DNA from: Alphaproteobacteria bacterium
GTDB lineage: Bacteria; Pseudomonadota; Alphaproteobacteria; VGEJ01
DNA: 64,000 nucleotides
NCBI GenBank assembly: GCA_965248765.1
Contig: CBDFKF010000003.1
Span: forward strand, 386,257 to 450,256
Direction: 5' to 3'
In this document: positions 1 through 64,000 of the stretch, in pieces
Layout: the number at the start of each line of letters is the position of its first letter
How positions within the stretch are numbered: the first letter of the stretch is position 1
The notes under the pieces: generated by a model
Seen by the model: the letters and a program-made list of their open reading frames with translations, nothing else
Databases searched by the model: none
What the model was told of the DNA's origin: nothing
Translations under genes and position numbers: made by a program

Positions 1-59
1 ATCTTCCTCGGGCCGATTGCCATCGCTCGCATCGAGCCGCTCGTCGCGCCCGGCTTCTA
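1..59 (+). CDS. 3' end of an upstream gene (partial, C-terminal 19 codons ending TAA)
   Basis: Open frame runs off the left edge of the window and ends with TAA at 57-59. Too short to assign a function. Confidence 0.2.
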
Positions 60-983
60 ATGCCCGGACGCTTGCGGCGGGCGACCGCTGCCGCCTTCGG
101 CCTGGCCGGCGTCGACGACCCCGCGGCGGATCTCACGGGTCCGGCGGAACAAATCCTCAAGCGCCTGGCCGTCGCCCCAGCGGATAGCGCGTTGCAGGGC
201 CGTCAGGTCCTCGGTAAATCGCCCCAACATCTCCAGCACCGCTTCGCGGTTATTGAGGAAGATGTCGCGCCACATGACCGGATCCGAGGACGCGATGCGG
301 GTGAAGTCGCGAAAGCCGCCCGCGGAGTATTTGAACACCTCGGAACGGGTCACCACCTCGAGGTCGGCGGCGGTGCCGACGATGTTGTAGGCAATGATGT
401 GCGGGAGGTGCGAGGTGATCGCCAGCACGAGATCGTGGTGATGGGGATCCATGATCTCGATCTTCATGCCGGCCCGGCGCCACAGCTCCGAGACTCGCTC
501 GACCGCCGCCTGGTTGCTCTCCGGCGGCGGTGTCACGATGCACCAGTGGCCTTCGAACATCTCGGCGAAGCCCGCATCGGGTCCGGAGTGCTCAGTGCCG
601 GCGACCGGATGTGCGGGCACGAGATGGACGCCTTCGGGCACGAGCGGCCCGAGCTCGCGGATGACGGCCTGCTTGACCGAGCCGACGTCGGTGAGGACGG
701 CACCGGGTTTCAGATGCGGGGCCACCGCAGCCCCGAGATCGGCGTAAGCGCCCAATGGTGCGCACAGAACGATGATATCGGCCTCGGCGACGCATGAGAT
801 CGGGTCGTCGTGGACGCTGTCGACGATGCCGAGCTCTTCGACCCGCGCGCGCGTTGCCGCCGAACGCGCGGTACCGGCAACGTGTCCAGCAAGTCCATCG
901 CGCCGGATGGCGCGGGCGAGCGAGGAGCCGATCAGGCCGAGCCCGATGATGGCAATGCGGTCGCAAACAACGCGGTCGGCCAC
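57..983 (-). CDS. tyrC: prephenate/cyclohexadienyl dehydrogenase
   Basis: 308 aa. N-terminal Rossmann motif IAIIGLGLIGSS and the TyrA-family core (HPVAG...H...). Lies downstream of hisC, as in alphaproteobacterial hisC-tyrC operons. Confidence 0.85.
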   Translation of the reverse strand: MADRVVCDRIAIIGLGLIGSSLARAIRRDGLAGHVAGTARSAATRARVEELGIVDSVHDDPISCVAEADIIVLCAPLGAYADLGAAVAPHLKPGAVLTDVGSVKQAVIRELGPLVPEGVHLVPAHPVAGTEHSGPDAGFAEMFEGHWCIVTPPPESNQAAVERVSELWRRAGMKIEIMDPHHHDLVLAITSHLPHIIAYNIVGTAADLEVVTRSEVFKYSAGGFRDFTRIASSDPVMWRDIFLNNREAVLEMLGRFTEDLTALQRAIRWGDGQALEDLFRRTREIRRGVVDAGQAEGGSGRPPQASGH

Positions 984-989
984 GACGCT

Positions 990-2078
990 TCACCCGCCTC
1001 CGGCGGCCAAGCGGCCCAGGGATTCGAGCAAGAGCTCGTTCTCGCTGTCACGGCCGACGGTCACCCGCAGGCAGTCGGGCAGCCCATACGCACTCATGTC
1101 GCGGACGATGATGCCGTCGCGACGGAGATGAGTGTCGGCGGCATGCGCCGCACCCTCGTCGTCGAAGCGGACCAGCACGAAGTTGCCGACGCTCGGGATC
1201 ACGGCAAAGCCGGCAGCGGTGATCCCTTCGCTCAAACGGGGCAACCAGTCGTCGTTGTGGGCGCGCGCTTTGTCGAGGTGTGCAACGTCCTCGAGGGCGG
1301 CGATGCCGGCGGCCTGGGCCGCCGCGTTGACGTTGAAGGGCTGGCGCAGCCGGTTGAGGACATCGGCGATGGCCGGCGGACAATAGGCCCAGCCGAGACG
1401 GAGCGCGGCCAGCCCATAAGCCTTAGAAAAGGTCCGAGTCATCACCACCGTCTCATAGCGGTCGACCATCTCGAGGCCCGATGAATAATCGTTGCGCTCG
1501 ACGAACTCGGCGTAGGCGGCGTCGATCACCAACAGGACGTTCGCGGGCAGCCGCCCACGCAAACGCGTGAGCTCATCGGCGGATATGTAGGTGCCCGTCG
1601 GATTGTTGGGATTGGCGAGGTAAACGACGCGAGTGCGTTCGCTGGTGTGGGCCAGCAGCGCATCGACATCGGCGCGGTAGTCGGTCTCCGGCGCGGCCAC
1701 CGGTGTTGCGCCGACGCCCTTGGCCGAGAGGCGATAGACGAGGAACCCGTACTGTGAGTAGAGCACCTCATCGCAGGGGCCGGCGTAGGCGCGGGCCAGA
1801 AGGTCGAGCAGCTCATCGGAGCCGTTGCCGCAGACGATGCGGGCCGGATCGAGCCCGTGACGGCTCGCCAGCGCGTGGCGAAGTCCTTGGACCGGTCCGT
1901 CGGGATAACGGTGGAGCGCACACCCGACCTGGCGGTATGCGGCGATCGCCTTGGGGCTGGGGCCAAGCGCCGATTCGTTGGAGGCAAGCCTGACCACCTG
2001 CTCGACGCCTTTGATGGCGGAGCCACCGCCGACGTAGGGCACGATGTCGAGGATTCCCGGGCGCGGGGTGAGGTTCAT
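990..2078 (-). CDS. hisC: histidinol-phosphate aminotransferase
   Basis: 362 aa. Class-II aminotransferase signature (LASNESALGPSP..., FSKAYGLAALRLGWA, PLP-lysine context). In synteny with tyrC. Confidence 0.85.
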   Translation of the reverse strand: MNLTPRPGILDIVPYVGGGSAIKGVEQVVRLASNESALGPSPKAIAAYRQVGCALHRYPDGPVQGLRHALASRHGLDPARIVCGNGSDELLDLLARAYAGPCDEVLYSQYGFLVYRLSAKGVGATPVAAPETDYRADVDALLAHTSERTRVVYLANPNNPTGTYISADELTRLRGRLPANVLLVIDAAYAEFVERNDYSSGLEMVDRYETVVMTRTFSKAYGLAALRLGWAYCPPAIADVLNRLRQPFNVNAAAQAAGIAALEDVAHLDKARAHNDDWLPRLSEGITAAGFAVIPSVGNFVLVRFDDEGAAHAADTHLRRDGIIVRDMSAYGLPDCLRVTVGRDSENELLLESLGRLAAGGG

Positions 2079-2098
2079 CGGCGGTCTCGGCTGCGCGC

Positions 2099-6187: not shown

Positions 6188-7381
6188 TCAGACGATACCC
6201 TCGCCCAAGACCAACACGCCAAGCCCGTAGGCGCTGGCGAGGCCGACCACAAGCGCCGCCGAGCCGATACCGGTTTCGGTGAGGGCGAGGCGGCGCAGAA
6301 GCGCTTCATCGATGCGCGTCGCGGCGGCCTCGGCACCGCGTGCGAAGGCATCGGCGCCGAGGCCGTATCGTTGGAGCGTGACGCGGCAGCCTGTATCGAC
6401 CAAGTCCCGCACGAAGGATTCGTGCACGGCGAGATCGCGCGCTGCGAGCGTGTGTGGGATCTCGACCTCGAGCCGGCCGGCGAGCTCGCCCTGGGCCGAC
6501 AACAGTCGCACCAGCGCCTGGCGCCACGACGGCTCGTCAGTACCCGGCGCTCCGAGATTAAGAACGAAACGGGCGCCGTTGTGCCGCCCGACCTGGAGCA
6601 ACAGGCTGGCGAGGCGGTAGCGGGCGGCGTCGGGATCGCCGCAGTCGATAGGACGCCCGCGCCAATCGATCAGGCCGGCTCGGCACGCCCCGAGCACGGT
6701 ATCGCCGCCATCGGTCACCGATCGGAGAGCAAGGCGCAGCCGACCTCGAATCAACGCCGAGAGGAGGTCGGGTGGCGCCATCGAAACCGTAGCGGCAGGC
6801 GTCGTTGCCGGGCGGAACGGAACGAAGCGGGCGCCGCCGGTGCGGAGCGCCACGGCGATCGCCTGCTCTGCTCCGGCCATCGCCTCCCGGGCGGCCCGAG
6901 TGGCCGCGGGCAGCGCAGTCCCTCCGATCGACAAACTCACAGGGCCCGCCCACAGGCCGGCATTCGGCGCCCGCTCGCGCACCGAGCACAAGAGCTTAGT
7001 GGCAGTCGCCGCCATGGCGCCATCATCGCAGTCGTACAGCACAACGCCGAACCGGTCCTCGCCGATGCGTCCCATCGAATCGCGCGCTCGCAAAGAAAGG
7101 CCAAGTACCTGCTCGACGCCATGGACCACCGCCTCGGCGGGGGCCGGACCCTGCGCGGCGACAACGCGTGCGAGGCCATCGATACTGATGCAGAGGTAGG
7201 CGCAACTGCCACCGCTCGCTAGCGCATCGCGCAGAGCCTGGTCCAACAGCGCCCGTAGCCGCCGCCAGCTCTCGGCTGCGCGGTCGTCGCCGTCGAGCCC
7301 GGCGCCGCCCTGGTCGGCCTGCCCGTCGCGCTTGGCATTTGCCGTCATCGCCAGCCGATCCTCCCAAATCATTGCCACCAA
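6188..7381 (-). CDS. signalling protein with degenerate GGDEF-like and EAL-like regions
   Basis: 397 aa. GRIGEDRFGVVL resembles a degenerate GG(D/E)EF site. The C-terminal half is EAL-like but lacks canonical residues. High GC3. Confidence 0.45.
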   Translation of the reverse strand: MVAMIWEDRLAMTANAKRDGQADQGGAGLDGDDRAAESWRRLRALLDQALRDALASGGSCAYLCISIDGLARVVAAQGPAPAEAVVHGVEQVLGLSLRARDSMGRIGEDRFGVVLYDCDDGAMAATATKLLCSVRERAPNAGLWAGPVSLSIGGTALPAATRAAREAMAGAEQAIAVALRTGGARFVPFRPATTPAATVSMAPPDLLSALIRGRLRLALRSVTDGGDTVLGACRAGLIDWRGRPIDCGDPDAARYRLASLLLQVGRHNGARFVLNLGAPGTDEPSWRQALVRLLSAQGELAGRLEVEIPHTLAARDLAVHESFVRDLVDTGCRVTLQRYGLGADAFARGAEAAATRIDEALLRRLALTETGIGSAALVVGLASAYGLGVLVLGEGIV

Positions 7382-7559
7382 GCGTAGCTAACGTTGGTTA
7401 AGAATCACTCAAGATAGCCGGCCGCGGTCGGCGGTACTGATGCAGTCTGTATTCCCGATATGTTCCGGAATGATAAGCGGAAATCCTAATAGTTATGGTT
7501 AACGCAAGACCAACGTCGACCCACACCTCCGCCTACCTTGGGGAATCCCGTGGCACCAC

Positions 7560-7600
7560 CCGGTATTGACAATTTTTTTGTATTAAATGTTAAGTAATCT
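7560..7600 (+). promoter_or_regulatory. putative sigma70-like promoter (TTGACA ... TAAGTAAT) in an AT-rich island
   Basis: TTGACA at about 7566, followed by an AT-rich spacer and a TAAGTA/TATTAA -10 candidate. Located in a 50% GC island, 7390-7640. Confidence 0.3.
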
Positions 7601-7648
7601 TTCCACACTATCGTCGCGGGGAGACGTGGAAGCTAGGACGGGAGTGTT

Positions 7649-8098
7649 ATGCCCGCGGCGGTGGGATATGCCGCGCCGTTATCGGTTCTGCCCGATCCAC
7701 TGGCGCTGCCGAATCCAGCCAACGATGTGCTGGAGCGGCGGGATCGCGAGTCGGTCGCGCAGAGTTCGATCCGTGATGCCGATGCATCCGACGCCCGGCC
7801 GGAGCGGGCTCGGCGCGCCGGCCAGTTCCAGCGGCCGCGAAGCCGCGCTTCGGATGCTGAAACCGCGCAACGGCGTGGCAATGCTAGCCCGGAACGGCCA
7901 GGGAACGGCCGCGCGCCGCTCGGCTTCGGCGTACCGTCGAGCCCGTTTCTGACCCAGCTGATCGCCCAACAGATAATCCCCGAAGACGCGCCACCGCCAA
8001 CGGAATCGGCGGACGAGGGCATCAGCGCCTACCAGACCGTACAGCGGCAATCCGAATCGTTCTTCGGGCCGCTGATCCCGACTGAGATCCGCGTCTAG
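7649..8098 (+). CDS. hypothetical protein
   Basis: 149 aa ORF with a strong GC3 bias, downstream of a 240 bp AT-rich putative promoter region. No family recognised. Confidence 0.35.
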   Translation: MPAAVGYAAPLSVLPDPLALPNPANDVLERRDRESVAQSSIRDADASDARPERARRAGQFQRPRSRASDAETAQRRGNASPERPGNGRAPLGFGVPSSPFLTQLIAQQIIPEDAPPPTESADEGISAYQTVQRQSESFFGPLIPTEIRV

Positions 8099-8257
8099 CG
8101 GGCCGCATCACCCGCCCCACCGCAGCGACGGCGCATTTGCCGTTCGTATGACGATGTCCCTGTAACCGGGCGCGTGCGCCGTGCTATAGGCGCATCAGCA
8201 TGGCCGAGCGCTTGGGCCTGATCGAGGAAGCGGCGTCATGACAGCGAGGCTCGCGCG

Positions 8258-9238
8258 ATGAAGGTCTGCATCGTCGGCGCCGGTGCGATCGGTGGCTACA
8301 TCGCCGCCCTCTTGGCCGCCCATGGGCTTGAGGTGAGCCTGATCGCGCGCGGCCCCCACCTTGCCGCGATGCGCAAGGGTGGCCTCAAGCTCTTGATCGG
8401 CGGCGAGGAGATTGTGGTGCATCCTCAGTGCACCGACGATCCGGCCGAAGCCGGGCCGCAGGACTACGTCATCATCGCGCTCAAAGCGCATTCTGTGCCG
8501 CCCATGGCCTCGCGGCTGACGCCGTTGTTCGGGCCTGAGACCGCGGTGCTCACCGCAATGAACGGGATTCCGTGGTGGTACTTCTACCGGCTCGAAGGAC
8601 CGTTCGAGAACCGGCGGCTGGCGACCGTCGATCCCGACGGCAGCCAGTGGGACAGCATCGGGCCGGAGCGCGCCATCGGCGCGGTGCTCTACCAGGCCTG
8701 CGAGATCGCCGCGCCCGGTGTCATCCGCCACATCGTCGGCGACCGTATTCCGATCGGCGAGCCCGACGGCACCCTGTCGGAGCGCTGCGCGCGCTTGAGT
8801 GAGACGATGATCGGCGCCGGCATCAAAGCGCCGGTGCGCCCGCGCATTCGCGACGAGATTTGGATGAAGCTGTGGGGCAACCTCTCGATCAACCCGGTAA
8901 GTGTGCTGACCCAGTCGACGATGGAGACCATCGCCACCGACCCCGGCACTCACGCGATCGTGCGGGCGATGATGGTCGAAGCCCAGGCGATCGCCGACAA
9001 GCTCGGGGTGCACTTTGCTATCACCGTCGATGAGCGCATCGAGGACGCCCGTTCAGTCGGCGCCCACCGCACCTCGATGCTCCAAGACCTCGATGCCGAC
9101 CGGCCAATGGAGATCGAGGCGCTGGTCGGCGCCGTCCGAGAGCTCGGCCAGCTGGTCGAGGTGCCGACCCCGACGATCGACATGATCTACGCGCTGACAG
9201 TTCGGCGCGCGCGCGAGGCCGGCTGCTACCCGGGATGA
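8258..9238 (+). CDS. panE: 2-dehydropantoate 2-reductase (ketopantoate reductase)
   Basis: 326 aa. N-terminal VCIVGAGAIGGY Rossmann motif and the ApbA/PanE family core and C-terminal domain. Confidence 0.85.
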   Translation: MKVCIVGAGAIGGYIAALLAAHGLEVSLIARGPHLAAMRKGGLKLLIGGEEIVVHPQCTDDPAEAGPQDYVIIALKAHSVPPMASRLTPLFGPETAVLTAMNGIPWWYFYRLEGPFENRRLATVDPDGSQWDSIGPERAIGAVLYQACEIAAPGVIRHIVGDRIPIGEPDGTLSERCARLSETMIGAGIKAPVRPRIRDEIWMKLWGNLSINPVSVLTQSTMETIATDPGTHAIVRAMMVEAQAIADKLGVHFAITVDERIEDARSVGAHRTSMLQDLDADRPMEIEALVGAVRELGQLVEVPTPTIDMIYALTVRRAREAGCYPG

Positions 9239-9317
9239 GTGCAGCCGGCGCACACCAATAGCGCGCGGCATCCGATCACACTAAGCTGAGAGCGGGGCTA
9301 CGCTTATCGGGGCGGTC

Positions 9318-9452
9318 ATGCCACGTGATATCGGCGAATGGCTTGAAGGGTTGGGTCTCTCCAAGTACGCGCCCGCGTTCGCCGAACAGGAGATCGCTCT
9401 GCGCGATGTGGTGCGGCTGATGGCCAAGGCACTGCTCGAGGAGTTGGGTTGA
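9318..9452 (+). CDS. 44-aa SAM-domain-like micro-ORF
   Basis: MPRDIGEWLEGLGLSKYAPAFAEQEIALRDVVRL resembles the N-terminal SAM domain of adenylate/guanylate cyclases. Its stop overlaps the next ATG (TGATG). Could be a gene remnant. Confidence 0.3.
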   Translation: MPRDIGEWLEGLGLSKYAPAFAEQEIALRDVVRLMAKALLEELG

Positions 9453-10368
9453 TGGACCGCGACTACCCGCGCGATCTGGTCGGCTACGGCCGCAAGCTGC
9501 CGCGCGCCCAATGACCGGGCGGGGCGCGGATCGCCCTGCAGATCTCACTCGCCTACGAAGCCGGCGGCGAGGCCAGCGTCCTGCATGGCGATTCGGGATC
9601 CGAGGGCATGCTGACCGATATCGGGTTCCCGGCCGTGGAGGGCCAGCGCAGCATCCATGCCGAGGGCTCGTTCAACTACGGCAGCCGCCGTGGTATCTGG
9701 CGACTGCTCAAGATCTTCGAGGAGCGCGAAATCCGCGTCGGTGTGCTTGCGGTCGTCATGGGTCTGGTGCGCAACCCCGAGGTTGCCCAGGCCATGGCGG
9801 AGACCGGCCATGAGATCGTCAGCCATGGCTGGCGGTGGATCGACTACCAGGATGTGCCCGAGAAGGTGGAGGCTGAGCACATCCGGCTCGCGGTCGAAGG
9901 GATCGAACGGGTCTGTGGCAAGCGGCCGGTGGGCTGGTTGACCGGGCGCCCGGGTCCCAACACGCGCCGGCTCGTGGTCGAGGAGGGCGGCTTCCTCTAC
10001 GACCGCGATGCGCTCGACGATGAGGTTCCCTACTGGGTCGAGGTCGCGGGCAAGCCGCACCTCGTGATCCCCTATTCCTATGAGACCAACGATAACCGGT
10101 TCAACGAGAACAGCGGCTTCAACACCGCCGATGACTTCTTCCAATACATGCGCGATGCCTTCGACGTGCTCTACGCCGAGGGCGCGGACGAGCCGAAGAT
10201 GCTATCGCTCGGCATCCACGACCGGCTGATCGGCCGGCCCGCCAAGTCGCTCGGCCTGGCGCGCTTCCTCGATCATGTGTGCTGCGCCACGACAAGGTGT
10301 GGATCTGCACCGGCGAGGAGATCGCCCGCCACTGGATGGCGGCGCACCCCTACCGCCCCACCGCGTAA
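9452..10368 (+). pseudogene. polysaccharide deacetylase (PuuE/allantoinase-type), disrupted
   Basis: In-frame TGA at 9512-9514 inside the motif RAQ-*-PGGARIA, where Trp is expected. A 2-bp (tg) insertion near 10284 shifts the C-terminus (HV(L)RHDKVWICTGEEIARHWMAAHPYRPTA is in another frame). The domain is otherwise complete. Confidence 0.7.
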
Positions 10369-10432
10369 ATGCGGTTCCACGACACCCAGCCCGGTGCGGG
10401 GTATCCCACCGAAGGTCGGTGATCGCGCGGGA

Positions 10433-11239
10433 TCATGGATCGCCTGTCTGAGCGCGGATGGCGGCGGCATGGGCTTCCAGTTCCGCCGCCGCGGCGTCGC
10501 GCTCGACCTCGCGAAGCAGCCTGGCGTAATCGTCGAGGCTCTTGAGGAGGTTCGGGTCGTCCGGGCCGAACACCGCCTCTAGGATCGCGAGCGCGCGCTG
10601 GTAGAGGGCCTCGGCCTCATCGAAGCGGCCTTGTGCGCGATAGACGCCGGCGAGATCGCCGAGACTCACCGCGACATGGGGGTGACCCGGCCCGAGTGCG
10701 CCCTCGCGACTGGCGAAGACGCGTAGGAAGAGCGGCTCGGCCGCCGCGTGCTGCCCTTGGGCAACGTGGACTAGCGCCAGGATATTGAGGGCCTTGGTCA
10801 CGTCCGGGTGGTGCGACCCAAACGCGGCCTCGAGCAGGGCCAGCGCACGGCGAGCCAGCGGCTCGGCCTCCGCGTAGCGGCCTTGGGCGCGGTAGAGCTC
10901 GGCCATGTTGTCGAGGGTTCGGCCGACGTCGGGGTGTTCGTGTCCCAGCGCCTGTTCGGCGATCGTCAGGGTGCGGACATAGGCCGCCTCGGCCTCGGCG
11001 TAGCGCTCTTGCGCCTTGTAGAGCAGGGCCAGGTTGTTGAGCAGCGCCGCCGTGACCGCGTGGTCGGAACCGAACTCCGCCTCGCTTAAGTGCAGCGCCT
11101 CCTCGGCATGGGCCTCGGCCGCCTCATAATCGCCGGCGGCGAAGGCCCCTGAGAACCGCTCGTGCGCCGCCAAGAGCTCGGGCGACTGCCCCAGCGCGGT
11201 TAGCGGCCATAGCGCGAGGCACAGCAAGCCCGCCGCCAA
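10433..11239 (-). CDS. secreted tetratricopeptide-repeat protein
   Basis: Signal peptide followed by multiple TPR units (LNNLALLYKAQERYAEAE..., RAQGRYAEAEPL...). Confidence 0.7.
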   Translation of the reverse strand: MAAGLLCLALWPLTALGQSPELLAAHERFSGAFAAGDYEAAEAHAEEALHLSEAEFGSDHAVTAALLNNLALLYKAQERYAEAEAAYVRTLTIAEQALGHEHPDVGRTLDNMAELYRAQGRYAEAEPLARRALALLEAAFGSHHPDVTKALNILALVHVAQGQHAAAEPLFLRVFASREGALGPGHPHVAVSLGDLAGVYRAQGRFDEAEALYQRALAILEAVFGPDDPNLLKSLDDYARLLREVERDAAAAELEAHAAAIRAQTGDP

Positions 11240-11290
11240 CCATCTTGTTGCCGTGGCGGTGATGGTGATGGGATAGGGCCGGCGCCGACG

Positions 11291-12880
11291 CTAGAAGCCG
11301 AGCGCGCAGCCGTCCTTGCGCGGCTCCGATCCACCGACCAACGCACCGCGCTTCCAGTCGATCCAGATCGCCTGGCCGCCGCCGAGCGGTACCGGCGCCT
11401 CGACCACGTTGTGGCCGATGCGGCGCAGGACCTCAGCCGTCTTGGGGCTGACGCTGCGTTCGAGCTGGAGCGCCCCGTCGTAATAGAAGCCGCGTGGGCA
11501 GTCGAGCGCCTCCTGCACGTCCATGCCGTAGTCGAGCACGTTCGAGAGGACATGGGCATGCCCGGTCGGCTGATACTGCGCCCCCATCACGCCGTAGGGC
11601 ATCACCGCCCGCCGGCCCTTGGTCACCATGCCGGGGATGATGGTGTGCAGCGGCCGCTTGGAAGGAGCGATGCAGTTGGGGTGGCCGGGCTCGATGACAA
11701 AACCGGCGCCGCGGTTTTGCAGCACCACACCGGTCTTGGGGCTGACCAGGGCTGAGCCGAAGGACAGGAACGTCGAGTTTATGAACGAGATGGCGTTGAG
11801 ATCGCGATCGACCACGGTGAGATAGACGGTGGTCGCGTGCGGCAGCGCCTCGCCTTCCTCGATATCGGTGATCACCCGCTTGCGGTGGATGCGCGCGCGC
11901 TGCTCGTCGGTGTAGCCCTTCGACAGGAGCCGCCTGACCGGCACCGTCGCGTGGCCGGGGTCGGCGATGTAGGTATCGCGCGCCTGGTAGGCGATGCGCG
12001 CCGCCTCGGCCTCGATGTGGAAGCGCTCCGGCCCGATCGGGTCAAACTCGGCCATGTCGAAGCCGGAGAACAGGTTAAGCATGATCAGCGCGGTGATGCC
12101 CTGACCGTTGGGCGGGATCTGGTGGACGTCGTGGCCGGCATAACGCGTCTTGATCGGCTTGACGTAGTCGCTTTGGTGGGTCGCGAAGTCGTCGAGGGTG
12201 TGGAGGCCGCCGAGCCGCTTGAGGTAGCTCACCATGTCGCGCGCGATCGCCCCGCGGTAGAAGGCATCCGGCCCTTCCTTGGCGATCCGGCGCATGGTCT
12301 TGCCGAGCTCGGGCTGGCGGTGGATATCGCCCGTCGCTGGCGCCCGGCCGCCGGGCAGGAAGATGCGGCGCATGTTCGGATCGACCTTGAGCACATCGAC
12401 CAGCGCCGCCCAATCGTGGGCGGTACGCGGCGCGACCGGCGCACCCTCCTCGCAATAGGGGATCGCGGGTGCGAGGCACTCGCCGAGGCTGCGGGTGCCA
12501 TAGTCTTCGAGGATACGATGCCAGGCATCGACCGCCCCTGGGACCGTCACCGAATGGACGTTGCGCGGCTCGATCTTGCGCATGCCACGCTCAAGGTACC
12601 ACTCGGGACTCGCCGCCGCCGGCGCCCGGCCCGAGCCGTTGAGGCCGACAACCTCACCTTCGGCGCCCGGCACATAGAGGATGAAGCAATCGCCGCCAAG
12701 ACCGGTCGATTTTGCCTCGACCGCGCACAGGACGGCACTGGCGGTTACCGCCGCATCGACGGCATTTCCGCCTTCCTGCAACACCCGCATCGCGGCGAGA
12801 GTCGCCAGCGGATGCGACGTTGCGGCCATGCCGTTGCAGGCATGGATAGTCGAGCGGCCAGGAAGCTGAAAGTCGCGCAT
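11291..12880 (-). CDS. ggt: gamma-glutamyltransferase family protein
   Basis: GGT family motifs (ATSHPLAT, the autoprocessing Thr region and conserved C-terminal GG residues). Start taken at MRDFQLPG. The ORF track extends 20 codons further 5'. Confidence 0.85.
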   Translation of the reverse strand: MRDFQLPGRSTIHACNGMAATSHPLATLAAMRVLQEGGNAVDAAVTASAVLCAVEAKSTGLGGDCFILYVPGAEGEVVGLNGSGRAPAAASPEWYLERGMRKIEPRNVHSVTVPGAVDAWHRILEDYGTRSLGECLAPAIPYCEEGAPVAPRTAHDWAALVDVLKVDPNMRRIFLPGGRAPATGDIHRQPELGKTMRRIAKEGPDAFYRGAIARDMVSYLKRLGGLHTLDDFATHQSDYVKPIKTRYAGHDVHQIPPNGQGITALIMLNLFSGFDMAEFDPIGPERFHIEAEAARIAYQARDTYIADPGHATVPVRRLLSKGYTDEQRARIHRKRVITDIEEGEALPHATTVYLTVVDRDLNAISFINSTFLSFGSALVSPKTGVVLQNRGAGFVIEPGHPNCIAPSKRPLHTIIPGMVTKGRRAVMPYGVMGAQYQPTGHAHVLSNVLDYGMDVQEALDCPRGFYYDGALQLERSVSPKTAEVLRRIGHNVVEAPVPLGGGQAIWIDWKRGALVGGSEPRKDGCALGF

Positions 12881-12963
12881 GGGTCCCCGTCGTGTGTGGC
12901 CGAGTGGGGCAAAGTATGCACGGGGTGTCCGCCTTTGCAATCGGCGGCCCGGCGCCCCAGCGA

Positions 12964-13194
12964 TTAGCGCATGCGAACGATGAGGTACTTGATGAAGGCG
13001 TCGTCGACGCTCTGCTGGCTCGCCCTGCGCCAGACTTCGAACGCCTCCTCGTACGCGGGGAAGATGCCGCGGATGTCGAGGGCGGAGAGATCGACGAACT
13101 CGCTCGCGCGCGGGTCCTTCACGCGGCCACCGAAGACGAGATAGAGCTGTTGTTCCGCCATCGTCAGCTGTTGGCCTGTCGCGGGCACCGGCAT
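12964..13194 (-). CDS. DUF4170 domain protein
   Basis: 76 aa. LYLVFGGRVKDP is a motif typical of alphaproteobacterial DUF4170. Confidence 0.5.
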   Translation of the reverse strand: MPVPATGQQLTMAEQQLYLVFGGRVKDPRASEFVDLSALDIRGIFPAYEEAFEVWRRASQQSVDDAFIKYLIVRMR

Positions 13195-13385
13195 GCCGGA
13201 GGGGGTGCGGGCCCTGCCCGCGGTGATGTGGCGACCGGTGGTGCGGTTATATCGGCGGGAGCCATCGGCGTGAACCCTTGTCAGCCAATGTGGACCGCCC
13301 GCGGCGTCGAAGACCTTAACGAATCGCGGTTGGCCCCAAGAGCCCCTATGCTCAGCCCAACGGCGTCCACCGCCTCGGAGCTACC

Positions 13386-15070: not shown

Positions 15071-15087
15071 CTCATCTCGCGGCGCTT

Positions 15088-19413: not shown

Positions 19414-19445
19414 CGGCCGCGCGCAGAATGCGCTGTCACTAACAC

Positions 19446-35819: not shown

Positions 35820-35821
35820 TC

Positions 35822-43665: not shown

Positions 43666-43674
43666 ATCCCCTTT

Positions 43675-49640: not shown

Positions 49641-49947
49641 ACAGCATGCCCGCCTCGATGCGCCCGTAGACGGTGAAGATCATTGCCTCGGCCGCCGGCA
49701 CCGTGGCCCCGACGGCGGCGGCGAAACGGTTCGCCAGCAATGCCCGGCGCCAATCCGCGAGCACCCACGCACGCAACGCCAGGCCTTGGTCGGCATAACA
49801 GCCGATAGTCACCTCGAGCGCGCGTTCGAGCTCGAAGTCGGCATCCAGCAAATCCGCGATCATGCGAAAGCAATCGACCCGCGCTTTGCGGCCGAACGCC
49901 AGCTTGGCGAGCCGCCTCTGGAAGGCGCGCGGCACAGCGGCGTTCAT
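49640..49947 (-). pseudogene. GspF/PilC/PilR-like inner-membrane platform protein, N-terminal fragment
   Basis: MIADLLDADFELERALEVTIGCYADQGLALRAWVLADWRRALLANRF resembles the T2SS/T4P GspF N-domain. Truncated where the terminase fragment starts. Confidence 0.4.
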
Positions 49948-50531
49948 CGCACCCCGCCATCGACGACGGTGAGCGGCGCCGCGAGTTCCCGTTCCGTGCG
50001 CGCCCCCTTGATGAGCGCGTCGAACGGATCGACGGCGCCCTCAGCCACCAGGCGCCAAATCTTCGTGCCGATCGGTGTACCGCCCATCCCATCGCGCCAC
50101 CAGGCCAAGGCGCCGAGCGGATTACAATCCCGCACGAAACCCAAATACCTCTCGTCAGGCAGGATCATCTCGGCCACCGCCTGTTGGCCCGTGTAGCCGT
50201 TCCAGGCCGCCTCAGCCAGCGCGGGGCTCGCGCCGGAAGTTCATGGCGCCGCCCCGGCGCCGGTGTCGATGAACTGCAGCACTTCGCGCGCCGTAGCGGC
50301 GGCGCGGATCTTCGAGACCATGCGGAAGGCCGGGTACACCCGGCAGAAATCCGTCAGCGTCTTGGCGAAGTGCTCCCTGGTTCCCGTGGGCCGCACCGCG
50401 CCTGAAATACGATAGTCCACCGGATCCTCGATCGTGACCAAATTAGGCTCGTTCCCCATCTCAACCATCTGCAAGTACAGCTTGCCACCGCCCGCGCGAT
50501 CAGGGGCGGCCGTGCCCGCCTTGCGCCCCAA
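49944..50531 (-). pseudogene. GspE/PilB/PilQ-type secretion ATPase, degenerate fragments
   Basis: LVTIEDPVDYRISG…AKTLTDFCRVYPAFRMVSKIR parallels the GspE xxTIEDPVEY…ALR..LRqDPDvImvGEiRD block. Only fragments survive, in more than one frame. Confidence 0.4.
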
Positions 50532-50546
50532 GAGGGCTCGTAATTT

Positions 50547-51365
50547 TCATGGCGTGGCCACCGCGCCCGGCGCCGGGCCATAAGGCAGCAACGCGTCCTC
50601 CACACCTGCTATCCACACCCCGGGCGGGCGGACGCCGATCCGCTCGATACGACCCCCGCCGGGCAGCGGATCGCCCACCCGCACGAACCACACGCCGCTG
50701 CCGTCGGTAACCCCGGCGCGCAGATCAGCCCCGCTGCCGATAATCGAAAACCAGACAAAGGATGGCGGCGGCGGCAGCTTCGTCTCGCGGGGTCCCGTGG
50801 GCTGCGCGCCGGGCTCGGCCTCACCGGCCTCGCCACCCGCCGCCCCGCCGGTCAAACGGGACAACAGCACAGGCGCCGTCCCCGGCGCGTCCGCCTCGGC
50901 GGCGGCCGGCTCCGCCTTCTCGCCCGGCGGCGCCCAAAGCTCCTCGAGCCTCGCATCCATCTGATAGACATCGGCAATCACCTTCTGGCGCCCATGGCAC
51001 AGCTTCAGCATCTCACGCTCGATCGCGAGTGCCGCCAACGCGTCATCCTCGTCGGCCGCATCCGCCAACAGCCCCGTCAGGACGTCACGCGGACAGGCAG
51101 GGATGCCGTCCGAACCCGACACAGCCTCCGGCGCCTCCACGCCATCCTCCAACTGTCCGAGAAGCCGGCTTGCGCCGGGCGAGGGCGCCTGCGGCGCCGC
51201 TGCCGGCGCAGGCTCACTTGCCGGCGGGAGAACCGGCAACAGCGCCTCCTGAGCCAACAACTCGCCGGCAGACAGCGTCGCCACGGCCAGCGTCAGACAG
51301 AGGCCGGCACGAGCCGCGGCGCCGCAGGCCCAGGAAACAGCCCGGATCATTGCGACAGCGTCCAA
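50547..51365 (-). CDS. secreted Pro/Ala-rich protein with a PilP-like C-terminal beta domain
   Basis: Signal peptide, low-complexity linker, then C-terminal FVWFSIIGSGADLRAGVTDGSGVWFVRVGDPLPGGGRIERIGVRPPGVWIAGVE resembling pilus-assembly PilP. Confidence 0.4.
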   Translation of the reverse strand: MDAVAMIRAVSWACGAAARAGLCLTLAVATLSAGELLAQEALLPVLPPASEPAPAAAPQAPSPGASRLLGQLEDGVEAPEAVSGSDGIPACPRDVLTGLLADAADEDDALAALAIEREMLKLCHGRQKVIADVYQMDARLEELWAPPGEKAEPAAAEADAPGTAPVLLSRLTGGAAGGEAGEAEPGAQPTGPRETKLPPPPSFVWFSIIGSGADLRAGVTDGSGVWFVRVGDPLPGGGRIERIGVRPPGVWIAGVEDALLPYGPAPGAVATP

Positions 51366-52555
51366 CCGACATGGGCGGCAAGCTCGTCCCAGGGATAGGC
51401 GTTCGTGCGGTCGATCCCTTCAAGGTTGACGTGCAGCCGTCCGCGCGACCACCACCACGTGCCGGGCACATCTTCCCCGTCCGTGGTCCGGGCAACGAGC
51501 TGGCCGCCCTCAGCGAACCCGAACGCCACCCGCTCGCGCTCCAGGAAGGGCAGCACCACGTCCTCGCCGCGTCCGACGACCCAGTCCATCATCTGCATCG
51601 CCGCGTAGCGCTCGCCGGTGGCAAGAAAGGGCAGCGCAAACCCCAGGAAGTAGGTGCGCTTCTCCGGCAAGTGCTCGTATTGAAGGTTGAGTTTCTTCCC
51701 GTCGCCCGAGGCGACGAGATAGCCGATATCCTCAATCGCGCCGTCGGCGTTAAGCCGCCACAACTCATCGCGCTCCGGATTGAGCACGAGCACGAATCGT
51801 GGCCCGGTGAAATCAACCAGCACCCGGCCATCGTTCTCAATCAGGAATTGCTTCAGCGCCGCCGCCGGAAAGGTCGGCCCACCGTCCGCTGCCCCCATGC
51901 CGGTGCCGCCAGGCGTTGGCGGTTCCGAACCCATGAGCCCGCGAAGCGGCGCATCGGGGTCCTGAACCATGAGTTTATCGAAACGCTTGGCGGTCTGCTT
52001 CTCGTTGATCGGCAGGTCGGCGGGAAGAGCCAGCTTCGGGCAAGCATCCTTCAACACCCGTGGCCAGCTATCTTGGACCCAGCCGACCGCCGCATGGTAC
52101 CAAGCCATTGTCTTCCGATCCCAAAATTCGTCGTGCACCATCCCGGTTTGAGGGTTGTAAAAGATCGGCCTGTGACGCTTCTTCTCGGCCGGATCAGGCT
52201 TTTTGCCCACCTTGTATTGGTTGTAGAGAGCACGGTACCGATCGGACTTCGCCATCCGCCAACGCTCATTGATGGCCTGATATCGGCCCCGCACACGTTG
52301 GCACGTATGGATATCGCCGTTCGGGTCATGATAGTGCGCCCAGACAAACTTACGATCCGACGCGCGCCTAGCAAGAGGTCTCTGCAGCACCCAAACCCGC
52401 CCGGTAAGCAATTCTTCAAAGAACTCCGGGCCATGGGAACTGTAGTTCTGGTACCGAACATTATCTTTTGCCTTAGTGCTGGCGCTCCATGTCATCGCAA
52501 AAGCAGCCATCAAACATACGGCGGCAACCGTTGCCGTCCTTGTGGCTATCATCAT
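51347..52555 (-). CDS. hypothetical secreted protein (402 aa)
   Basis: N-terminal signal peptide. No recognised domain. Lower local GC. Part of the pilus-like cluster. Confidence 0.45.
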   Translation of the reverse strand: MMIATRTATVAAVCLMAAFAMTWSASTKAKDNVRYQNYSSHGPEFFEELLTGRVWVLQRPLARRASDRKFVWAHYHDPNGDIHTCQRVRGRYQAINERWRMAKSDRYRALYNQYKVGKKPDPAEKKRHRPIFYNPQTGMVHDEFWDRKTMAWYHAAVGWVQDSWPRVLKDACPKLALPADLPINEKQTAKRFDKLMVQDPDAPLRGLMGSEPPTPGGTGMGAADGGPTFPAAALKQFLIENDGRVLVDFTGPRFVLVLNPERDELWRLNADGAIEDIGYLVASGDGKKLNLQYEHLPEKRTYFLGFALPFLATGERYAAMQMMDWVVGRGEDVVLPFLERERVAFGFAEGGQLVARTTDGEDVPGTWWWSRGRLHVNLEGIDRTNAYPWDELAAHVGWTLSQ

Positions 52556-52620
52556 CCGGTCCTTGCTCCTTCAGCCACACTCTGCATGCTAGACTATCCC
52601 CCTCGTTAGTCCCCTGAACT

Positions 52621-53850
52621 TTAAGCTCCACCACCGCCCTCTGGACATACTGTGGGGCCGGGGGAGTGGCTGGGCCCACAGCCCCCACAAGGCGCGGGGC
52701 CGCTTGGCCCCGAACCGGGCCCCGGACCGGGCCCCGGATTGGGCCCCGCGGCGGTCACGCAGGTATCGGCGTCAAGCACCCAGTTGGTGTAGCCGATGTT
52801 GATTATGGGCTGCATATCCCACGCGAACTGAGTCGAACGCTCGATCCTCGTACGCTGCAATGTAATGGAACCGGTTTGCCCCGCTGGGCAACTCTCGGCA
52901 CTTGCCTCCGTAAAACTGTTCTCGAGGATCGCCGGCGTCGGCGTCACCGGCGCCAGCCCCGTCCAGCAACTCGACGAGACGAACTGCGGCGCACCCAGCG
53001 TTGTGCCACCCGCCGTCACGGTCTTCAGGCGCCGCCAGATATCACGCCCCTCCATCGTGCGGTTGTGCGGCGGGCCCGCGAACCAGGAACAGACATTGCT
53101 ATAGTGCTCCCACTCACTGTAGTCGGTCCGGCAGGCATCAATGAAGACCTGCCAAGGGCCGTTAACCGGCGCGCCGACGTCATCGCCGCGGGCGTTGCGA
53201 TCCTGGCTCACCTCGCGGATCATCGTCCGCCCGGCGCCGTGGCTGCCAGACGGGCAGGCATCGAGCCGGCGCTCGCGGGTAACGCGGGCAGTTATCTGCC
53301 CGTAGGGGTCGGGCACGAGGCCGGCAAGGGCGGCCCGTCCCTCCGGCAAGGCGCCGCCGAACGACGCAGCCGACAAACAGGCGGCCAGAGCCACGTCGGC
53401 ACGGCCCACCGCACCCTCCGCCACCCCGCCCTCGAGCCAGTGCAGCACCGGCGGCCGGCCGCCGACCCCGTCCGAGCCGTAGGTATGCGGCGCCGCATGA
53501 ACCGCCCGGTGATCGGTGCCAACCCCCTTGAGGGTTTCCGGCTCCAAATATACCAGCAGAGTGTCGTCGCAGTACCGCGCCCGGACGCCGCGGGTCGTTC
53601 ACGAATCGAGCCATCTTGTCGCCGCCGGCGGCACCGCCCCCGTCCACACGGTGGCCGCGGTCGATTCGTCGCGAATGAAGTTCTCGAGATGGCGGTAGGC
53701 GACATCAACCGCCCGGGCGTGCGCCAAGCTCTCCTGGCGATAAACCGCCGCCGATCCCTCTTCTCGTGCTCCTGCCGGCGTGGCCGCGAACAGCGCGACG
53801 ACGCAAACGACCCCCAGCAGCCAACTGGCGTAACGGCTAAAGTGCTTCAT
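52621..53850 (-). CDS. hypothetical secreted protein with a Cys-rich, Gly-Pro-repeat C-terminus (apparent frameshift near 53550-53600)
   Basis: Signal peptide at 53850 (MKHFSRYASWLLGVVCVVALFAATPAGA). The body is in ORF 52621-53547. The tail is …GPNPGPGPGPGSGPSGPAPCGGCGPSHSPGPTVCPEGGGGA. Confidence 0.4.
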
Positions 53851-55024
53851 TCTTTCCTCCCATCAGTTCCTCAAACCGGGATTCCAACATCGATACCGGC
53901 GCCACCGGCCGGCCCTCGAGACGCCACCCGCCCTCCACCGCGCGGACGAGCTCGACGATCTCCAAAGCGGCGATCTCCGCGGCGTCGTCCGCGATCGGAC
54001 CCAGCGCATCCTCGCTCTCGATGCGCACCATCCAGGTGCCGTCCTGCGCGCGCGCATACTTGATCTGCGCCCCGTGCACGCCGAAGCGGCGGTCCACCGC
54101 CCGGCGAAACGCCAGGAACGGCGGAGCAGGCGGAACCTCAGTCGTCAGCACGGGCCCGAGCAGCAGCAGGCCCCAGGCCCGCCCGCCCGTGACCGCAGCC
54201 GCATACCAGCCCGAAAGATGGCGCTCGGCGATCTGCCGGTGCAGCGGTTCGGCATGCCCCGCCTTGAGCCGCCAGCGCACCAGTAGCACCGCACGGTCCG
54301 TGACCTCCGGGCGCAGCGCCGTCAGCGCGGGATCCGCAAACCGCGCCGCACACGACAGCCGCTCGATCTCCCACGCCGCCAAATAAGGCGGCTGCTCCCG
54401 CAACACCCGCCGGCAGGCCTCGATCAGCACCACACTGTCAACGGCCGCGCTAACCCGGGGCGGGGGCGCTTCCGCGACCACCGGCGCGAGCGGTCCCATC
54501 ACCAAACTCGTGATCTCATCCCAATAAACCCAGCCCAGCCCCGCGCCAAACAGGCTCAGTCCGACGATGACCGACGCCGCTATCCCGCCCGCGGTGAACC
54601 GCACCGCCAGCGCCGGCTTCAGCACCATCTCCGGCTCGATCGCAAGCGCCGCCGGATCGATCTCCCGAGCGCCCTCGACCAAACCAGGCGTTGCATAGAG
54701 CGACCAACCCAGTGCCCGCGCGCGGCCAAACGCCGCCAGAGCCGACCCGCGGTCCCCGAACACCTCATCGCCATCGGCGAGAACCGCGCCGTTGCGCGCC
54801 TTCACGAGCGCATACCTGACCGCGGCGTCGTCCGCGACCAGCGCCATCCAAAAGTCTTCCTTGATGTGACGCACCAGAGCCGGCACCCCGTCGGGCTTCT
54901 CGCCGCCGGCCGACTCGTCGGCCGCCGCATAGCCCGTTTGCGCGCCCCAATGTACGATCCAAGGGCCGAATTTGCGCGCATCGGCCGCGCTGGCCAGCGC
55001 GCCGCCGCGATCGAGCCAGAACAA
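53837..55024 (-). CDS. hypothetical membrane protein (one central TM helix), pilus-cluster associated
   Basis: 395 aa. The TM segment is GGIAASVIVGLSLFGAGLGWVYW. No family recognised. Confidence 0.4.
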   Translation of the reverse strand: MFWLDRGGALASAADARKFGPWIVHWGAQTGYAAADESAGGEKPDGVPALVRHIKEDFWMALVADDAAVRYALVKARNGAVLADGDEVFGDRGSALAAFGRARALGWSLYATPGLVEGAREIDPAALAIEPEMVLKPALAVRFTAGGIAASVIVGLSLFGAGLGWVYWDEITSLVMGPLAPVVAEAPPPRVSAAVDSVVLIEACRRVLREQPPYLAAWEIERLSCAARFADPALTALRPEVTDRAVLLVRWRLKAGHAEPLHRQIAERHLSGWYAAAVTGGRAWGLLLLGPVLTTEVPPAPPFLAFRRAVDRRFGVHGAQIKYARAQDGTWMVRIESEDALGPIADDAAEIAALEIVELVRAVEGGWRLEGRPVAPVSMLESRFEELMGGKNEAL

Positions 55025-55391
55025 CCCGGCCGCAAACCTCCGTCCCTTGATCTCCAGGACCTGTTACGACATTAACGACGACGGCGCGCCCGAGCTGTTC
55101 GTCTACCTCGGGCTGGGGACCTGGACATGCGGATCGGCCGGTTGCGAGCTCCTCATCTTCGAGGGCCCGCCGGGCGCGCGAACGGAGTTCTCCGGGATGG
55201 CCTCGGGCGATACCCTACGCGTATGGATCAACCCGGAGACCGGCCACAAGACGGGCTACGCGCACATGGCTGGCCTGCGCTGGACCGGTACCGATTACGA
55301 GTGGTTCTGCTACCGTCGGTGCTTCCCGCGCTGCTAGCCTCGGCCGCGATGCGAGGTCGGGACGGATAGGACCGGCGGCGGCCCCGCGCCG

Positions 55392-61991: not shown

Positions 61992-63421
61992 AATTTGTCG
62001 GCGAGCGGAGGCTTCCGCTGGGTCCAGGTCCGCGCAGTCTCGAGCTGGTAGCCGAGACGGAATAGGGTCGCCTCATCGCCGTGTCTGGCCACCAGCTGGA
62101 CCGCCACCGGGGTGCCTTTACCCGAGAGGCCGATGGGGAGCATCATCGCCGGCTGGCCGGTGTGGTTGAACCACACCGTAAAGGGGCTGAACCGGGCGAT
62201 GCGGTCCCAATACTCATCGACGTCGTCCATCATCATATCGAGCCAGCCGAGTTCGGGCGGGTCCATCGCCAGGCCCGGCGTCACCAGTACATCGTAGGTG
62301 CGGTGGAACGCCGCCATCTGGCGCCCGAGGTGATGGGCGGTCATCACCGCGCGCTGGTACAACGGCGCCGCCATTGCCTCGCCCATCTCAGCGGTCTTGC
62401 GCGTGACCGTCTCGACCTCGTCCGGACCGGGACGACGGCCCGAGGGGTGGCTAGCCAGCATGACCGCGAGATTGGTCGCGATGATGGTGCGGAAGGCCGG
62501 CTGGATCGCCTCACCCTCGATCTCGGGGTCGGCCTCTTCGACGTTGTGGCCAAGCTCCTTCAACAGGTACACGGTCTCGTTCAGCACGCGCATTGGCACA
62601 TCGCCAATCGGGACGCCGTTCGGCGCTTTCGAGGTGTAGGCGATGCGCAACTTATCCGGCTTTTCCCCGATCTCCTCGAGAAAGGGACGTGCGGGTGGTG
62701 GCGCGACATACGGATCGCCCTCGCCGGGTCCGGAGGTAGCATCGAGGAGCGCGGCGGAATCGCGCACCGTCAGGGTCACCGCATGCTCCTGCGCCAAGCC
62801 CGCCAGGCCCTCGCCGAGGTAGGGCGCGAAGGTGTTGCGCCCGCGGGTCGGCTTGAGGCCGACCAAGCCGCAGCAGGCGGCCGGCGCGCGGATCGAGCCG
62901 AAGCCGTCGCTGGCGTGGGCCATCGGCAGGATCCGTGCGCCCACCGCGGCAGCAGCGCCGCCGCTCGAGCCGCCGGATATCAGGTCGGTGTTCCAGGGAT
63001 TGCGCGTCGGACCATGGAACTGCGGCTCGCAGGTGAGGCTCGCGCCCAGCTCGCAGGTGTTGGTCTTGCCGAAGATGACAAGCCCGGCCTTCTTAAGCCG
63101 GAGGACCATCTCGCTGTCGCGGGGCGGGACCTGATCGGCGAAGAAGCGGCTGCCGCGGGTGGTGGGCACGCCGGCGAGCGATGCGGAAAGCTCCTTGAGC
63201 AGGTAGGGCACGCCTTTGAGCGGGCCGTCGGGCAGGCCGTCATCGATCGCCTTGCGACCGTGGTCATAAAGCTTGGTGACGACCGCGTTGATCTCCGGGT
63301 TGCGGGCCTCGACCCGCGCAATCGCCTCCTCCAAGAGCGCGAGTGGCGTGATCTCGCCCCGACGCACGAGGCGCGCAAGGCCAACGGCGTCATGGAACTC
63401 ATAATCGTCGAATTTACCCAC
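61988..63421 (-). CDS. amidase (amidase-signature family)
   Basis: [11 protein letters not shown] plus the Ser-cisSer-Lys triad context ([15 protein letters not shown]). Confidence 0.85.
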
Positions 63422-63439
63422 GCGGTCCCTCCCCCACGC

Positions 63440-63880
63440 TCAAGCTGCGCCGGCCCGGCGCCAGACAAGACGGTTGGTCATCGTGGCGCCGGATGCCGTG
63501 GTCTGGCGCGCGCTCAACACCATCACATCGCCGCGGTAGTCGATCTCCCGAGTTTGGGCAGTGCCCACGAAGTCGGGGTTGAGCGCCTGTTCTATCTCGT
63601 GGACCATCTCGCCGTCCGCAAGCCGCCATCGGCCAGCGTAGCCGAAGTAGCCATCGAAGGCGGCCGCCCGCTCAGCCTCGGGCGCCTTGCGGGCGTTCGC
63701 ATTCGAAAGCGAGGCGCGGCCTGCGCGCATGATGGAAACTGCCATGGCGCCGTCGGCGGCGTAGATAAGAACGCCCTGCGCGCCCTCGCCAAACGGCCGG
63801 CTCAGGGTGCGACCGTCGTCGTACTCGATCGTCCAGTCATCGAGCTGCCAACTGCCGATCAGTTCGTGCGGTTTGATCAT
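63440..63880 (-). CDS. lipocalin-like domain protein
   Basis: 146 aa. LIGSWQLDDWTIEYDDGRT…GVLIY is typical of small bacterial lipocalin-like/DUF proteins. Confidence 0.45.
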   Translation of the reverse strand: MIKPHELIGSWQLDDWTIEYDDGRTLSRPFGEGAQGVLIYAADGAMAVSIMRAGRASLSNANARKAPEAERAAAFDGYFGYAGRWRLADGEMVHEIEQALNPDFVGTAQTREIDYRGDVMVLSARQTTASGATMTNRLVWRRAGAA

Positions 63881-64000
63881 GGCTGCATAATATCAGGCCT
63901 ATGGCGCGGCTGGTGGCGCCCGCCTTGTCAGGCAGTGGCTGCCCCGCCAAGATGCGGGCACATACGAAACCCTTGGGGGAGAACGATGAGCGAGGCCAAG

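Follow-up and report, generated by a model that had tools for sequence, protein, structure and literature searches.

The 64,000-nucleotide stretch of alphaproteobacterial DNA analysed here (contig CBDFKF010000003.1, positions 386,257 to 450,256; hereafter the window) contains a large number of broken genes: at least 14 of its approximately 60 genes are disrupted or fragmentary, a local count that covers these 64 kb only. Judged from comparison of assembled sequences, genuine gene decay driven by insertion sequences (IS) is probably the best explanation. An earlier note, made from the letters of the window alone, had already pointed to genuine pseudogene accumulation, and this is borne out by checking the lesions against close relatives, which show the same process independently.

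The gene map, built from Pfam and NCBIfam profile scans of approximately 85 open reading frames (ORFs), is alphaproteobacterial in character, and the G+C content stays between 64 and 70% across the whole length (about 66% overall). The ends hold housekeeping genes (tyrA, hisC, chorismate mutase, metX, metW, panE and GGT on one side; hemF, petABC, GST and amidase on the other), the middle holds genes of accessory metabolism and c-di-GMP signalling, and two prophage remnants lie between about 33.7 and 55.1 kb, along with unknown genes and a myo-inositol-phosphate operon (MIPS, IMPase, IPCT/DIPPS). A tRNA scan and an Rfam scan of the window gave zero matches. Frame splits were checked by (i) continuity of Pfam profiles across frames, (ii) tblastn with intact relatives and (iii) three-frame reading. 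In six genes (serine hydrolase, methylase, terL, portal, IS1182 transposase and IPCT) a profile runs from one frame into another on the same strand. The frameshift positions given in the earlier note agree with the three-frame reading within a few bases, and nine of the ten genes that it listed as split between frames stand as such, while the tenth, a secreted cysteine-rich protein gene, is instead interrupted by an in-frame TGA. Small lesions are entirely absent from approximately 28 kb of housekeeping genes (hisC, tyrA, metXW, panE, GGT, queF, hemF, petABC, amidase and others). A C-terminal frameshift in hemF, suspected from a partial Pfam match, was rejected, as the reading frame continues to an ordinary stop after ...SLPPLVSWP.

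Eight contigs of six other metagenome assemblies were compared with the window, approximately 150 kb of related loci in all. A homology search with the repaired serine hydrolase led to a protein of 98% identity, encoded on an ENA contig of 410 kb, and exact-protein look-ups followed. Close relatives came to light only by way of a large protein collection and these look-ups; when one genome per species was screened with the GS-like protein, no match exceeded 55% identity. Four assemblies supplied five loci (L069-L073) with about 99% identity to the window core, and the relatives of the inositol operon (L076-L078) were found by a MIPS search at 98-99% identity. Every covering relative has the intact allele at all testable sites, namely the two deacetylase lesions, those in M23, serine hydrolase, SDR, IMPase and IPCT, and the IS1182, ISNCY and IS5 insertions; the M23, SDR, IMPase and IPCT proteins of the relatives are full length. 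At the small lesions the alleles compare as follows.

9514: TGA in the window, TGG in relatives
10280: extra TG in the window, none in relatives
15012: base missing in the window, present in relatives
29705: GGG in the window, GGGG in relatives
32233-32236: one base longer in the window, shorter in relatives
44039: TGA in the window, TTA in relatives
44611: GGGG in the window, GGG in relatives

The comparison with close relatives, which the earlier note had proposed, therefore shows the lesions that can be compared to be derived and private to the window lineage, because all covering relatives are uninterrupted at every testable site.

The following disrupted genes lie in the core, outside the region of prophages and inositol genes.

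9452-10370, forward strand: PuuE-like polysaccharide deacetylase pseudogene (Pfam PF01522; three-frame reading), two lesions
14184-15071, reverse strand: M23 peptidase pseudogene (Pfam and three-frame reading), 1-nt deletion at 15012
20814-22112, reverse strand: REC-PAS-GGDEF gene (Pfam), truncated, ending after GGDEF profile position 94
24304-26800, reverse strand: transketolase N-terminal-subunit gene, split by the IS1182 element at profile position 60/61
29086-30185, forward strand: beta-lactamase-family serine hydrolase pseudogene, 1-nt deletion at 29705 (GGGG to GGG)
32183-32948, forward strand: SDR pseudogene, 1-nt G insertion at 32233-32236 inside the TGxxxGIG cofactor motif

The deacetylase has been hit twice. 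Specifically, a conserved Trp codon at 9512-9514 has changed from TGG to TGA (L071 has TGG), and a TG has been inserted at 10280-10284, turning GTG into GTGTG (L070 and L071 are without it). In the M23 gene the signal peptide MIRTLAAYLAPALLLALPFV is out of frame with the catalytic domain; the base absent at 15012, a site outside any homopolymer run, is present in L069, L070 and L071, and the intact protein of L069 (261 amino acids) matches window positions 15011-14292 over its residues 21-260. The PF00144 profile of the serine hydrolase is divided between two frames (positions 3-197 and 207-310), with one more G at 29705 in L069, L072 and L073, and the homologue P0001 reads ERLARGYMHPDEDG in frame. 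Similarly, the SDR N-terminus RLENRIAIVCGAAGG is out of frame with the remainder of the gene, and L069, L072 and L073 are each one base shorter at this site and encode an intact protein of 254 amino acids. The two other core genes are broken by larger events. From the REC-PAS-GGDEF gene, 271 nt (the 3′ end and intergenic DNA) are gone from the window and kept in L069, which reads to the full GGDEF C-terminus; the gene still stops early when the neighbouring ISNCY-type element is removed in silico. The Transketolase_N profile flanks the IS1182 element with positions 7-60 and 61-267, and the gene is uninterrupted, at 285 amino acids, in L070 and L072.

Several further irregularities accompany these genes. 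At 9320-9450 on the forward strand, a 44-codon ORF contains only the start of a SAM domain (MPRDIGEWLEGLGLSKYAPAFAEQEI...) and is probably the remnant of a larger signalling gene; L071 has a similar 44-amino-acid SAM_1/SAM_2 product. At 6188-8100 a weak GGDEF-EAL ORF (E-values of about 1e-10 and 1e-7) is followed by some 700 bases with no clear coding frame, which may be an older, more eroded pseudogene, and a deletion in L070 (6589-9514) covers part of the GGDEF-EAL region. At 22821 all four covering relatives have one more G, by which a 318-amino-acid response-regulator ORF becomes one gene of 100 or 120 and another of 175 amino acids, 10 nt apart. At 30729, within an ORF on the reverse strand (30689-30961), the 17-nt unit TTCATGGCATCGAGCGA has a single copy in the window, two copies in L073 and three in L069, a tandem repeat whose copy number changes the frame. 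L070 and L072 share paired +1/-1 differences from the window at 24256/24423 (167 nt apart, at the transketolase subunit gene junction) and at 26837/26847 (10 nt apart, upstream of the GS gene), which could be compensating frameshifts or homopolymer length variants.

Three IS elements were recognized in the window.

19434-20830, forward strand: ISNCY/IS1202-family IS (ISTde1-like) with an intact 391-amino-acid transposase (NCBIfam NF033594, 343.6 bits against a cut-off of 250)
25055-26609, reverse strand: IS1182-family IS (NCBIfam NF033551, 295.3 bits against a cut-off of 270)
42851-43687, reverse strand: IS5-family IS (NCBIfam NF033580, 135.9 bits against a cut-off of 110)

That these elements interrupt or abut genes and carry target duplications, as the earlier note held, was confirmed, with duplications of 4 bp (IS1182-family), 16 bp (ISNCY-type) and 4 bp (IS5-family). 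The ISNCY-type element is missing from L069, L070, L072 and L073; it has TGT termini (TGTCAC, TGTCGA) and lies between the copies of a perfect 16-bp duplication (19418-19433 and 20832-20847). The ISTde1 subgroup of the IS1202 family is characterized by 15-17-bp direct repeats and TGT ends (10.1101/2022.12.17.520857), and the window element resembles it in its ISNCY-type transposase with an N-terminal helix-turn-helix, its 5′-TGT termini and its 16-bp direct repeat (10.1101/2022.12.17.520857); the host here is an alphaproteobacterium, and the likeness is one of transposase profile, repeat and termini. Its transposase belongs to a cluster of 18 variants at 90% identity or more, most of them on one 2.94-Mb contig. 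The IS1182-family element has terminal inverted repeats with 40-nt arms (93% complementary) and a 4-bp duplication (CATC/CATG), the uninterrupted target in relatives reading CCCATCGTGAAG. Its transposase lies in two frames, with the switch at about 25460-25500; a full-length IS1182-family element in L072 has no DNA similarity to the window copy and so offers no reference for this lesion. Finally, the IS5-family element, with orfA and orfB in two frames, sits at the stop codon of MIPS and either precedes the IMPase gene or lies within its first 14 codons; CTAG is found on both sides of it and as a single CTAG in L077, and the element is missing from L076, L077 and L078.

The operon that received the IS5-family element lies within a lineage-specific island, together with the prophage remnants.

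33681-55059: lineage-specific island, 21.4 kb (alignment blocks with L069, L072 and L073; tblastn)
43693-44559, forward strand: inositol monophosphatase-family (IMPase) gene, in-frame TGA at 44038-44040 (TTA, Leu, in L076, L077 and L078)
44546-45911, forward strand: IPCT/DIPPS gene (nucleotidyltransferase and CDP-alcohol phosphatidyltransferase), extra G at 44608-44611 (GGG to GGGG)

The island is missing from all five core relatives and stands in place of approximately 1.3 kb of core DNA that all of them have. It is not a clean insertion: at one border (33078-33680) residues 1-201 of a 352-amino-acid PG-binding-domain protein are kept, and at the other (54933-55334) residues 200-334 of a 334-amino-acid protein. 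In the inositol operon an IS5-family element, a nonsense codon and a frameshift fall within 2 kb, and at the site of the frameshift L076, L077 and L078 are all without the extra G and encode 454 amino acids. The nonsense changes had been described as G-to-A in the earlier note, which holds for the deacetylase (TGG to TGA) but not for IMPase, where TTA to TGA is a change of T to G. The operon as a whole (window 41711-45911) is intact in L076, L077 and L078 (approximately 10001-13360), and it occurs on two contigs of one sample, one of which adjoins the same prophage module as in the window. MIPS, IMPase and IPCT/DIPPS together form the enzyme set for di-myo-inositol phosphate, a solute mainly of hyperthermophiles; here the set is predicted from the genes of an alphaproteobacterium with 66% G+C.

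Further broken genes of the island, mostly of phage origin, are the following.

34068-35610, reverse strand: lambda-type portal gene, PF05136 profile positions 1-71 and 26-354 in different frames
35839-37844, reverse strand: GpA-type terL, 1-nt deletion at 36531-36535, frame switch at 36528-36537
40105-40413, reverse strand: ParB-N6/N4 DNA methylase remnant, C-terminal 103 amino acids (Pfam positions 140-220 of 221)
47894-49130, forward strand: phage N6/N4 DNA methylase, PF01555 positions 1-61 and 77-220 in different frames
49264-49713, forward strand: second terL, internal fragment with the nuclease domain only (profile and tblastn)
50241-50546: T2SSE/VirB11-type ATPase fragment, 101 amino acids (Pfam/NCBIfam scan)
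52621-53862, reverse strand: secreted cysteine-rich protein gene, in-frame TGA at 53599-53601, two ORFs in the same frame

The terL gene reads GGCCC where L075 and L077 (88% identity) have GGGCCC. In tblastn, residues 1-427 fall in frame -3 and residues 425-624 in frame -2, a single clean switch, and the GpA nuclease profile likewise passes from positions 1-118 to 113-291 in another frame. At the end of the gene (35800-35880, reverse strand) there is no in-frame stop before gpW, the only nearby TGA, which overlaps the gpW ATG (ATGA), being out of frame; the gene may have a further small lesion near 35830-35845, or there may be a mosaic junction. The phages whose terL is closest have gpW and portal genes only 40-48% identical to those of the window. 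The portal switches frame at about 35287-35300, and the prophage ends just downstream. In the phage methylase the switch lies between 48295 and 48441 and is probably due to an extra base in CAGCAGAGATC. The methylase remnant at 40105-40413 matches residues 304-406 of a 421-amino-acid homologue at 93% identity in tblastn. A nonsense codon that seemed to separate the ORFs 38447-38998 and 38999-39679 was rejected, as these are two separate genes (38471-38995 and 39107-39676), just as in L075. For the cysteine-rich protein, a search of 1.84 billion representative proteins found homologues that match the downstream ORF from its residue 1 starting at their own residue 80-100, and the alignment across the stop has Trp in five of five homologues. 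Around this gene, after the ATPase fragment (50547-55063), there are large ORFs of 272, 402 and 408 amino acids with no Pfam or NCBIfam match, and the stretch 50241-55063 may be what is left of a module for secretion or conjugation.

The relatives are not merely intact references, as they carry lesions of their own in genes that are intact in the window. An IS1595 element lies within the serine hydrolase in L069, L072 and L073, an IS256 element adjoins an SDR gene at 13.4 kb in L070, IS3 and IS1595 elements lie in panE and M23 in L071, and L072 has three IS630 copies. Deletions among the relatives correspond to window positions 6589-9514 (2.9 kb), 21522-22472 (0.95 kb) and 23707-28787 (5.1 kb), and queF carries a 19-nt duplication. 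Some frameshifts are shared: a 16-nt insertion and a 2-nt (GT) loss in the PEP-mutase gene are common to assemblies from different samples, L069, L070 and L072 have all lost GT at 19087, and both L070 and L072 are missing a T at 27562. Contig naming, from which the assemblers were judged, suggests that the assemblies sharing these frameshifts stem from different assemblers as well as different samples. The shared indels are inherited variants and not context-specific errors, because the other assemblies covering the shared sites 18924 and 27562 keep the window allele. Taken over all strains, the deacetylase, M23, the serine hydrolase, REC-PAS-GGDEF and the transketolase/GS/PEP-mutase cluster have been broken by different events in several of them. 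The IS families found in the relatives' loci are IS256, IS3, IS1595, IS630, IS1182, IS21, IS110, IS66 and IS6. A particularly dense case is L076 1-21140 (ERZ26167216 ctg495758, 2.92 Mb, with 87.54x in its name), where at least 13 of the 23 called genes are transposase-related, including two IS256, IS630, IS66, an IS6/IS240-type, IS1595, two IS21 helper genes, IS110 and IS3, plus one RVT_1 gene.

Counting sites where the window differs from all covering relatives, with at least two relatives covering, there are 62 nonsynonymous, 53 synonymous and 26 intergenic window-private substitutions (27, 35 and 53 at codon positions 1, 2 and 3), an elevated ratio that may point to weak purifying selection. 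The genes with the most marked nonsynonymous excess are GS, transketolase, GGDEF, serine hydrolase and M23, whereas in petB, petC, GGT and queF the changes are mostly synonymous.

Whether the small lesions are mutations or artefacts is the main question to be weighed. The IS insertions, nonsense substitutions and TG slippage, which the earlier note had held to be of a kind that a sequencer would not make, have been verified against close relatives, as have deletions; IS insertions, deletions, nonsense changes and multi-base changes cannot be basecalling errors. Across the window, most small lesions are likely to be real mutations as well, although a few private 1-nt indels could be assembly errors. 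The indel contexts are G4 to G3, G2 to G3, G3 to G4, GGGCCC to GGCCC, (TG)2 to (TG)3 and, at M23, no repeat at all, in a window with only 14 runs of six or more bases.

The most serious alternative accepts the IS insertions, deletions, nonsense codons and TG insertion as real and regards most 1-nt frameshifts (M23, serine hydrolase, SDR, IPCT, terL, portal and methylase) as consensus errors of a long-read metagenome assembly. Several of these changes do resemble long-read or flow-based homopolymer artefacts: four or five of them alter the length of a short G or C run, all are confined to one assembly, many private homopolymer indels, plausibly errors, are seen in related assemblies of low coverage, and the relatives' contig names suggest long-read assemblers (an indication from naming only). 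The earlier note, too, had seen the signature of indel-prone sequencing chemistry in the indels at G/C runs. As a diagnostic sign this finds no support, and the alternative is unlikely, since the affected runs are only 2-4 bases long, the M23 deletion lies outside any run and replication slippage gives the same kind of change. Moreover, the frameshifted genes have either been hit more than once or suffered separate damage in other strains. Of the four core genes with a frameshift, three are inactivated in relatives too, through IS insertions or deletions (estimated p of about 0.04-0.1, from small numbers), and the IPCT frameshift shares its operon with a nonsense codon and an IS. Lesions thus co-occur with nonsense codons and IS elements in the same units, while the housekeeping genes have not a single 1-nt indel, and private indels per kb are fewer in the window than in any relative. 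A GATC-linked basecalling error was also considered for four sites that adjoin GATC, and discarded, as GATC is so frequent (one per 117 bases) that such proximity is unremarkable; its 548 occurrences in 64 kb compare with 431 ± 17 in dinucleotide-preserving shuffles, a mild over-representation.

A number of points weigh against the reading of genuine decay and should be kept in view. The lesion calls rest on assembled sequence, and all small lesions of the window are private, each resting on one assembly of its haplotype. Low-coverage relatives (with 2x or 4x in their names) are full of private 1-nt homopolymer indels, L071 having seven in 11 kb; these look like read errors, and such data can hold artefacts. 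The terL, portal, methylase, IS1182 transposase and cysteine-rich genes are polarized only by protein homology, with the closest relative at 89% for terL and 62% for the cysteine-rich protein. Seven of the 12 small lesions lie in mobile or island DNA, which makes up 38% of the sequence, though this excess is not significant (binomial estimate, p of about 0.12). Finally, a ratio of nonsynonymous to synonymous changes near 0.4 also occurs in ordinary bacteria when very close strains are compared.

Another alternative is that the contig is a consensus of co-existing strains and that some indels are chimeric haplotype artefacts. There are at least six related haplotypes across samples, and a sample may hold two related contigs (L076/L077; L071/L073). 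This is nevertheless very improbable: the other haplotypes agree with one another at each lesion site and none has the window allele, if strains had been mixed, the consensus would as a rule show the intact allele of the majority, and the IS junctions are clean, with exact target duplications. Least credible of all, and extremely improbable, is functional recoding, by which programmed frameshifts, or UGA read as Trp or selenocysteine, would allow normal expression. In its favour, two of the three in-frame TGAs are at conserved Trp positions, and programmed frameshifting is common among IS5-type transposases, the window IS5 having its orfA and orfB in two frames. Against it, 99%-identical strains show TGG, TTA or an open frame at every testable site, so that the interruptions cannot be called conserved features; one of the three TGAs stands in place of Leu, and the shift sites have no common slippery motif. 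Reassignment of UGA to Trp, in particular, was ruled out by the TGG of a relative and by the intact hemF, which ends in TGA as an ordinary stop.

Genuine decay would then describe an uncultured alphaproteobacterial lineage of approximately 66% G+C whose genome is actively decaying. Several IS families would transpose, kilobase deletions would remove accessory DNA, and point lesions would build up in genes no longer protected by selection. Selection may have been relaxed on the transketolase/GS/PEP-mutase/serine-hydrolase cluster, the M23 and deacetylase genes, the c-di-GMP genes, the inositol operon and the defective prophages. After the first hit on a functional unit further hits would be neutral, which would explain the two lesions in the deacetylase and the three in the inositol operon. 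Most 1-nt indels would be products of replication slippage fixed by drift, and not assembly errors.

This is a new example of a known process, and no new mechanism is required. IS-expanded, pseudogene-rich genomes are familiar from recently host-restricted or bottlenecked bacteria such as Sodalis glossinidius, the Sitophilus endosymbiont SOPE, Shigella, Burkholderia mallei, Bordetella pertussis, Mycobacterium ulcerans and M. leprae. The window lineage shares with them several active IS families, inactivation by IS, deletion, frameshift and nonsense, defective prophages, close strains with different lesions, spared housekeeping genes and possibly weak purifying selection, a pattern that would fit an early stage of such decay, rich in IS elements. 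It differs in that it is known from 64 kb and approximately 150 kb of related loci, with no documented host or bottleneck, that its G+C content is still high (66%) and that its strains are metagenome assemblies and not isolates. Locally, there are several IS families with recent insertions. The lesions are recent as well, since near-identical (99%) strains differ in their IS insertions, deletions and frameshifts, and these frequently strike the same genes.

If the lesions are real, a high-G+C uncultured alphaproteobacterium joins the few cases in which gene decay is visible between near-identical strains, and the functions that became dispensable can be read from the genes that were hit independently and in parallel. 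Annotation pipelines and quality scores for metagenome-assembled genomes would take such a region for an error-ridden assembly; the relatives show that most of the disruption is biological. A bolder reading, which we find possible but somewhat doubtful, is that the window and its relatives are a snapshot of the earliest reductive genome evolution, possibly of a symbiont, in which at least six co-sampled, 99%-identical haplotypes independently inactivate the same accessory clusters through a multi-family IS burst. If that were true, public metagenomes would already contain a natural experiment, with replicates, on the order in which genes are lost and on how repeatable that loss is. The interest of the window lies in this strain-resolved, parallel loss of genes, visible in public metagenomes.

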